Shown here: piece after piece, positions 58,936-59,655 of the stretch
How the letters are laid out: every line of letters begins with the position of its first letter
Numbering within the stretch: the stretch's first letter is position 1
Source of the DNA: Octopus vulgaris
Taxonomy: Eukaryota
NCBI GenBank assembly: GCA_951406725.2
Contig: OX597843.1
Location: 930,001-994,000 of the forward strand
DNA: 64,000 nt
Direction of reading: 5' to 3'
The notes under the pieces: generated by a model
Told to the model about the DNA's origin: nothing
Seen by the model: only the letters and a program-made list of their open reading frames with translations
Databases searched by the model: none
Made by a program: the position numbers and the translations under genes

Positions 58936-59158
58936 ACGTTTTGTGTGTCTGTGTTTGTCCCCCTAGCATTGTTTGACAACCGATGCTGGTGTGTTTACGT
59001 CCTCGTCACGTAGCGGTTCGGCAAAAGAGACCAATAGAATAAGTACTGGGCTTACAAAGAATAAGTCCCAGGGTCGATTTGCTCGACTAAAGGCGGTGCT
59101 CCAGCATGGCCACAGTCAAATGACTGAAACAAGTAAAAGAGTAAAAGAGTAAAGAGTA
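58723..59158 (+). mobile_element. SINE family B
   Basis: Full-length. Confidence 0.9.
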
Positions 59159-59655
59159 TTTGTCCCCATCTTGTTTGTTGTTAACACAACATTTCAGCTG
59201 GTATACCCTCCAGCCTTCTTCAGGTGTCTTGGGGAAATTTTGAACCTGGGTTCTCCTTCCTAAGGTATTTTTTGACGTTATTATTATTGATATTCAGGTC
59301 ACTGCCTGGAATCGAACTCGGAATCTTGGGGTTAGTAGCCCACGCTCTTAACCGCTGTGCCATATGCCCGTGGGCATATGGTGTAGTGGTTAAGAGTGCA
59401 CATATGGCATAGTGGTTAAGAGCACAGGCTACTAAACCCAAGATTCCGAGTTCGATTCCAGGCAGTGGCCTGAATAATAATAACATCGAAAAATACCTTA
59501 GGAATGAGAACCTAAGACACCTGATGAAGGTTGGAGGGTATATCAGCCGAAACGTTGTGTTAACAACAAAGAAGATGAGGACAAATATCCATCAATTGTA
59601 ATTAATGTAAATAATGTGAATAATGTACATAATTCCTCATCTCCTGAATATAGAA
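59157..59655. mobile_element. Head-to-head inverted dimer of a tRNA-headed, hammerhead-tailed element
   Basis: Arms 59157-59369 (-) and 59372-59587 (+, extending to ~59655); A box TGGCATAGTGG, B box GAGTTCGATTCC; hammerhead core in each arm. Confidence 0.8.
59516..59561 (+). ncRNA. Minimal type-I hammerhead ribozyme motif (mirror copy at 59183-59228, minus strand)
   Basis: GACAC-CUGAUGA-A-GGUUG[GAGGGUAUAU]CAGCC-GAAA-C-GUU-GUGUU. Confidence 0.7.

Follow-up and report, generated by a model that had tools for sequence, protein, structure and literature searches.

Among described Penelope-like elements (PLEs), Poseidon of the anole and Penelope of D. virilis offer the nearest comparison for the repeat reported here. 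In anole Poseidon, the open reading frame (ORF) overlaps a hammerhead ribozyme, both DNA strands are cut and extended, two internal start sites for the reverse transcriptase (RT) define a tail, and the first 172 nt of the ORF are needed as template (PMC11167929). Craig et al. regard an inverted partner and a one-sided tail as typical of Penelope (PMC8557442), and Cervera and de la Peña describe pairs of hammerheads on opposite strands, 100-700 bp apart, as truncated PLEs (PMC4209133). Our subject is a palindrome at positions 59157-59655 of a 64,000-nt stretch of Octopus vulgaris DNA, contig OX597843.1, positions 930,001 to 994,000, which we call the window (G000:C30:930001-994000, where G000 is our label for the 2.8-Gb source genome). 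We believe, with a probability of roughly two in three, that it is a dead, inverted double insertion of the pseudo-long terminal repeat (pLTR) of a coding Penelope, whose RNA starts 13 nt upstream of an A box of tRNA origin and was a product of RNA polymerase III (Pol III). A first-pass annotation of the window had instead proposed a non-autonomous short interspersed element (SINE) or retrozyme that uses Penelope machinery.

The family resembles anole Poseidon (PAc) and D. virilis Penelope in having a single ORF, with RT followed by a C-terminus putatively of the GIY-YIG type, and a pLTR that is the 5' end of the unit (PMC11167929, PMC2377424). It also shares with them a hammerhead over the ORF start, two 3' ends about 30 nt apart, an inverted, 5'-truncated partner and, probably, a promoter in the pLTR. 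In contrast to both, its pLTR opens with a tRNA-derived head carrying A and B boxes, 5' ends lie just upstream, and the unit lacks TTTT; no tRNA-type promoter is described in the excerpts on those two elements. The ribozyme itself does not differ from the minimal type-I hammerheads of metazoan PLEs, which lack helix III and have a 5-bp stem I, a long stem II with one unpaired base and palindromic positions 15.2-16.2 (PMC4209133); here stem II has 6 bp and the predicted cleavage triplet is GUU. A tRNA-related Pol III promoter and a hammerhead also share one short repeat in schistosome Sm-alpha and Sj-alpha (PMC6765202, PMC2770079). However, those repeats are non-coding, tandem, equipped with canonical hammerheads and released by cleavage, whereas the octopus repeat forms the leading part of a Penelope that encodes protein, with a minimal hammerhead, an inverted arrangement and RT-set ends. 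The TRIMp3 elements Helenus, Ajax and Cassandra carry in their terminal repeats a Pol III promoter derived from a small RNA, with boxes kept and fold lost, but they are non-autonomous LTR elements whose autonomous partners are argued to need RNA polymerase II (Pol II) (PMC10886601), whereas the octopus tRNA head is part of an element that is itself coding. Finally, animal non-LTR retrozymes are hammerhead repeats derived from PLE pLTRs (PMC7761336; bioRxiv 10.64898/2026.07.22.740005); they form head-to-tail tandem arrays giving circular RNA, whereas the copies described here are dispersed and mostly inverted. A term search of the excerpted preprint (bioRxiv 10.64898/2026.07.22.740005) did not return 'tRNA' or 'promoter', and the octopus repeat annotation in PMC13282606 gives Penelope and SINE totals and, in its excerpt, does not mention hammerheads. 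Our literature search, which included the combination of Penelope, pLTR and tRNA-derived, found no tRNA-headed coding Penelope among records judged mostly in brief form.

The feature is almost certainly a truncated and inverted Penelope pLTR, consisting of the 5' untranslated region (UTR) and about the first 50 codons. The family is real and not a chance product, because exact patterns taken from it match thousands of times across the genome (head start, 1,588; B box, 2,618; hammerhead, 4,506; tail-to-ORF junction, 42), while the reversed controls gave 0 each. A copy count with the right arm yielded 5,498 candidates in the source genome, and the 40 that were scored contained at least 51 matches. 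The juxtaposition of tRNA head and hammerhead recognized in the first-pass annotation is likewise a genuine unit; the two co-occur in 83 of 100 heads. A search with sequence shared upstream of several copies returned 30 loci, in 29 of which the head directly follows the end of an ORF; the head also follows the ORF in 10 of the 15 best RT loci. This ORF matches RVT_1 (E 1.2e-9); the first-pass annotation was right to invoke Penelope machinery. The family was also found in sequencing runs from four other organisms, where a few contigs join the ORF end to the head.

The consensus unit of 2,646 nt consists of an 81-nt head, an (AAT)n tract, an 835-codon ORF that begins before the hammerhead, a 35-nt 3' UTR and then the next head. 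The consensus ORF holds one internal stop, and its start codon corresponds to positions 59504-59506 of the window. Loci L302, L318, L337 and L320 have the head-B-ORF arrangement, and copies of this end of the unit show head, (AAT)n, hammerhead and tail continuing into the ORF; copies that run from head to ORF begin at +3, +5 and +10, and one continues in from an upstream unit. Full-length protein relatives measure 826-855 aa. The relative P0003 is 55% identical and has the same hammerhead-encoded N-terminal peptide; P0001 is 68% identical. After the RT, the C-terminus displays CVY-x-IPC-x-C...Y-x-GET and later H motifs, which we take to be GIY-YIG-like; the Pfam scan gave no GIY-YIG match, and PF01541 occurs in 3 of 120 homologues among the matches listed. 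Going by these motifs and the order of domains, the family presumably belongs to Poseidon, among the RT plus GIY-YIG Penelope elements. It looks extinct in the source genome, given that none of the 139 matches to the ORF is intact (the longest open frame is 569 aa) and that copies diverge by ~6% outside CpG.

One could suppose that the short copies are an independent Pol III-transcribed SINE or retrozyme lineage, re-amplified in trans by the Penelope protein. In line with this idea, 67 of 98 heads are short with an intact internal promoter, head and hammerhead usually occur together, and there are known examples both of non-autonomous elements derived from Penelope and of hammerhead SINEs with a tRNA head (PMC8557442, PMC6765202, bioRxiv 10.64898/2026.07.22.740005). 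However, the unit proved to be the pLTR of the autonomous family itself. When 70 short copies, picked by pattern, were compared with 61 ORF-linked copies, picked partly by similarity, the same polymorphisms appeared across the head and ORF start, and divergence was 5.5% versus 6.1%, i.e., the two groups are of the same age. Three differences with P<0.02 fall inside the search pattern and are artefacts, and one CpG site has a P of 0.048. Since the short copies are colinear with the autonomous 5' end and no diagnostic variant separates them from ORF-linked copies, they do not form a distinct SINE lineage. They also hold at most ~157 nt of the ORF, versus the 172 nt needed by anole Poseidon (PMC11167929), and so may lack the binding site. 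Overall, we judge an independent lineage quite improbable. A different candidate, an independent SINE sharing only the head, was rejected as well: 17 of 100 heads have no hammerhead within ~1.1 kb downstream, yet all of them enter an AAT/AAC tract, several enter another retroelement, and no second body was found.

Nor did the claim of ribozyme-defined ends survive for 3' ends. Among 445 scored 3' ends, 3 lie at unit positions 183-184 and 0 at 185; instead, ends peak at 238/244 and at 268-272, i.e., 50-85 nt beyond the cut site, where the latter bin includes copies continuing further because position 272 is the end of the query. As 3' ends ignore the cut site, we rejected a retrozyme in the sense of head-to-tail tandem copies with ends set by self-cleavage. 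The two hammerheads of the palindrome lie on opposite strands, which allows no cis-dimer pairing within one transcript. There is a small excess of 5' ends at unit positions 186-191 (59557-59562 in the window), with 14 in 6 nt versus 13 in the preceding 26 nt; these may represent templates that had been cleaved, or else joins made at the 8-nt palindrome that coincides with the site. The hammerhead core varies by 7.5% among copies versus about 5% elsewhere. Dead copies would be expected to lack a conservation signal in this way, and just one variant of the core is common, at free position 7. An Rfam scan of two stretches at E<=10 gave no match to a hammerhead family.

The head was said to resemble tRNA-Asn. 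Its A and B boxes do match the consensus, but the Asn identity is not established: over 73 nt, the head shares 50 identities with the genome's own tRNA-Arg(TCT), 48 with Arg(TCG), 46 with Ala, 43-45 with Thr and 39-46 with Asn. An origin from tRNA-Asn is thus not favoured over Arg, and the source may be either. Compared with shuffled sequences, z is about 7-8 for Arg and Ala. The cloverleaf has decayed; ARAGORN called no tRNA in the window or in 13 loci, and the Rfam tRNA model scored the head at 14.2 bits, below its cut-off of 29. Eight Penelope ORFs from metagenomes had no tRNA called next to them, but most of their contigs stop near the ORF. Elsewhere in the source genome, G000:C20:52876000-52927500 holds an array of >40 tRNA-Asn-like genes.

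The evidence on transcription comes from where copies begin. From contig C1 we took the first 100 matches to the B box, excluded L346 and L366 as near-identical duplicates, and assigned four perfect palindromes to +1. Of the resulting 98 heads, 67 end at -1..+14, where 5.3 were expected, 16 end at +15..+44 and 15 continue upstream (L341, at -12, is ambiguous, and two are censored). Per base, copies end at a rate of 0.6% within the head, 7.3% across the 16 nt from -1 to +14 and 0.2% upstream. A hammerhead-anchored sample, which overlaps the first in part, is consistent with this (a hand count gives about 26 of 33 arms). In seven loci, same-strand template jumps lead into the head, landing at +1 in five cases, at +2 in one and at +7 in one. 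Position +1 is a purine after a pyrimidine and lies 13 nt upstream of the A box, and type-2 Pol III promoters start at such a distance. Finally, 14 of 21 arms that end at about +1 carry a self-templated snap-back extension of 2-9 nt. We therefore consider it very probable that the RNA 5' end is at +1, and the Pol III-type promoter claimed in the first-pass annotation seems to have set it.

The pile-up of 5' ends might alternatively mark not a start but an RT stop, or a cut of the RNase P type, at a tRNA-like fold or small hairpin. A second small peak at +7, which is tRNA base 1 (8 of 98), and the spread of 5' ends over 16 nt would fit such an event. However, the cDNAs copy the whole hairpin and stop on its far (5') side, jumps hit exactly +1 with added bases, and the head does not fold as a tRNA, so we regard this explanation as very improbable indeed.

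Three observations suggest Pol III as the probable polymerase for RNAs starting at +1: the 5' ends just before the A box, the jumps landing 13 nt upstream of it and the absence of TTTT from the unit. The consensus has 0 TTTT, with 14 TTT runs and 31 AAAA. The expected number is 2.9-3.0 under a synonymous shuffle (P about 0.02), 4.4 under a base shuffle (P 0.01) and 5.0 under a codon redraw (P 0.002), with P at 0.002-0.03 overall. Thirty-seven natural copies (58.5 kb) contain 29 TTTT at 24 scattered sites, or 0.5 per kb; the long natural copies L096, L100 and L208 have none. In control Penelope ORFs overall, the rate is about 1.4-10 per kb; intact ORFs of two other families in the source genome have 8-17 TTTT each (3.5-7.8 per kb), and metagenome relatives have 1.4-7.8 per kb.

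The main rival to a Pol III start is an ordinary Penelope transcribed by Pol II, in which the tRNA-like piece is a SINE or tRNA remnant captured in the pLTR and a Pol II promoter, with an upstream TATA-like word available in tandem arrays only, determines +1. Such a word lies at -28 in the consensus, known Penelope promoters are LINE-like (resembling those of long interspersed elements) and located in the pLTR (PMC2377424), the head is followed by (AAT)n as in a SINE tail, and translation would need no special pleading. However, this explanation does not account for a +1 located 13 nt before a consensus A box, for boxes that were kept while the cloverleaf was lost, or for 0 TTTT where intact control ORFs of similar length have 8-17. 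In addition, RTs copy the cap, which for Penelope is only presumed, and all five exact +1 joints have an A before +1, never an extra G. We consider Pol II initiation unlikely.

A further and more tentative proposal, which we think somewhat doubtful, is that Pol III, normally an enzyme of short non-coding RNAs, also makes the full-length coding template, a tRNA-derived promoter having replaced the Pol II promoter and every TTTT having been purged from the 2.5-kb ORF. As the unit has no TTTT, Pol III could read through the ORF into the next unit. If so, though we would not rely on it, the 'SINE-like' copies would be by-products that map the start site. A literature look-up for an argument from terminator loss found nothing.

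It is important to consider what weighs against Pol III. Uncapped Pol III RNA is a poor mRNA, and the protein may come from Pol II read-through. The D. virilis Penelope promoter is internal, TATA-less and LINE-like (PMC2377424). Our survey samples cover the first half of contig C1 and copies that match the pattern exactly. The TATA-like word, which overlaps a stop codon 28 nt upstream of +1, fits Pol II and Pol III alike. The TTTT count comes from one lineage only; shorter T runs are also thin, GGGG does not occur either, and Phe is infrequent in the protein. The control L252 is low as well (3 TTTT in 1.7 kb), and taken by itself the natural ORF of L102, also with 3 TTTT in 1.7 kb, is not depleted (P 0.64). 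Four sequencing runs that contain pLTR contigs were guessed to be RNA, with no run on record as RNA, and contigs show no ends, strand or level.

The head-to-head arrangement reported in the first-pass annotation is present, and is the known form of Penelope insertion (PMC8557442, PMC4209133). Across the family, an inverted partner accompanies 48 of 70 head-start arms. Of 38 inverted pairs that could be scored, 33 carry the tail on one arm only and 0 on both; 10 further pairs were unscorable. Simple fold-back as the sole cause of inversions is rejected because 18 pairs have the tail on the inverted arm and 15 have it on the anchored one.

We propose that the protein would cut both strands of AT-rich DNA and that reverse transcription would be primed at two positions within the RNA, about 125 and 155 nt past the ORF start, as in vitro work has shown for anole Poseidon. 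Where priming falls in a transcript's first pLTR, the product would be a 240-270-nt cDNA running off the RNA 5' end. The copy of this self-complementary end could then snap back, extend by a few bases and join the cDNA made at the other DNA end. The outcome would be a head-to-head pair with a tail on one arm and, in the window, a 26-nt duplication, which would reflect a longer snap-back followed by joining of the second cDNA at +10. A snap-back at about +1 explains why the palindrome is centred at GCCC-GT-GGGC. The hammerhead would act on RNA and not fix insertion ends; its cleavage would remove the start codon.

If our interpretation is true, a Penelope that is coding, has a tRNA promoter and lacks a terminator would break the rule that autonomous retrotransposons use Pol II (R2 uses Pol I) and that only short non-autonomous ones use Pol III (PMC10886601), and one would have to ask how RNA without a cap comes to be translated. 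The family also shows a SINE-like repeat arising straight from an autonomous element, and such copies are prone to mis-annotation as SINEs. In addition, it provides a genomic read-out of how Penelope inversions form, through run-off at the RNA 5' end, snap-back and joining, a step called undefined in PMC8557442.

Most details of the palindrome agree with the first-pass annotation. The inverted repeat pairs 59157-59366 with 59401-59587, with one block of 83 nt at 89% and another of 77 nt at 90%; identity between arms is 80% over 210 columns, gaps included. The self-complementary GCCC-NN-GGGC of the RNA 5' end occupies 59366-59375 (no strand assigned), with the central GT at 59370-59371. On the forward strand, a first, partial copy of the head (59372-59400, unit 7-35, A box 59379-59389) was recognized by repeat search, and may be the snap-back extension of the left-arm cDNA; it accounts for the duplicated A-box segment of 26 nt. 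The right-arm head proper runs from unit +10 (59401-59472), with the A box at 59405-59415 and the B box at 59448-59459. It is followed by the (AAT)n tract, the Penelope start codon at 59504-59506 and a frame-breaking 17-nt deletion (59473-59515), so the supposed 'spacer' includes the start of the ORF, and the hammerhead sits in coding sequence. This minimal type-I hammerhead (59516-59561) aligns with the family unit and fits the published description (PMC4209133). It consists of stem I at 59516-20/59557-61, the core at 59521-27 and stem II at 59529-34/59543-48, and its predicted cut follows the GUU that ends at 59556. Further ORF sequence extends to the long 3' end (59562-59655), including the optional Penelope 'tail' at ~59633-59655, and the right arm has no TTTT through 59655.

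The left arm, on the reverse strand, begins with a head at 59295-59375 (inferred +1 at 59375, A box 59362-59352, B box 59319-59308); the arm is 92% identical to unit 1-216. Alignment places its (AAT)n tract and ORF start at 59229-59294, with the start codon (59257-59255) mutated, a decayed hammerhead with a CUGAAGA core at 59183-59228, and ORF sequence past the hammerhead at 59157-59182. AACGUU stands in place of stem III in the right arm as claimed, but the left arm, whose GAAACGUU has decayed, reads GAAAUGUU, which we attribute to CpG decay. Stem II is paired in both arms, although the substitutions are C>T transitions that leave G-U pairs and are not compensatory. Nor is 59157 the end of the left arm, as had been thought: an unrelated SINE-like repeat on the forward strand, with a 3-nt ATA duplication, is nested at 58722-59156, and the arm resumes at 58721-58697 (unit 214-238, 96% over 25 nt, E 8e-5), where it has the short 3' end and no tail.

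Several further observations concern neighbouring or related repeats. The nested SINE-like repeat has a second, inverted copy at ~61060-61705, 2 kb away, and the head of this SINE-like repeat also follows an (AAT)n in locus L346. In L345, L365, L377, L392, L414 and L424, fragments of another retroelement lie in the (AAT)n of the Penelope head, immediately beyond oriented position 1540, and three of them share a similar point; they look like a microsatellite-targeting LINE, presumably Dong/R4. Upstream of the ORF start in L120, L183, L123, L172 and L315, an (AAT)n links 5'-truncated copies with the tails of two further repeat families, and the tRNA head may have been captured by the same kind of joining. 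Two young Penelope families were encountered in the source genome. In the first, at L299:1-9901 (G000:C1:27841000-27850900), a 4,271-bp tandem carries intact frames of 775 aa; another long frame, of ~450 aa, precedes and overlaps the 775-aa frame, making a two-ORF or frameshift layout possible. In the second, at L300:1400-7009 (G000:C12:43653000-43662000), the tandem measures 3,431 bp, its 726-aa frames are intact, and a T-rich UTR holds a motif resembling a hammerhead. Lastly, another short repeat occurs in the window at 13982-14015, 14594-14627 and 15176-15209 (~580-610 bp spacing), with a fourth copy at 59663-59696, just past the right arm.
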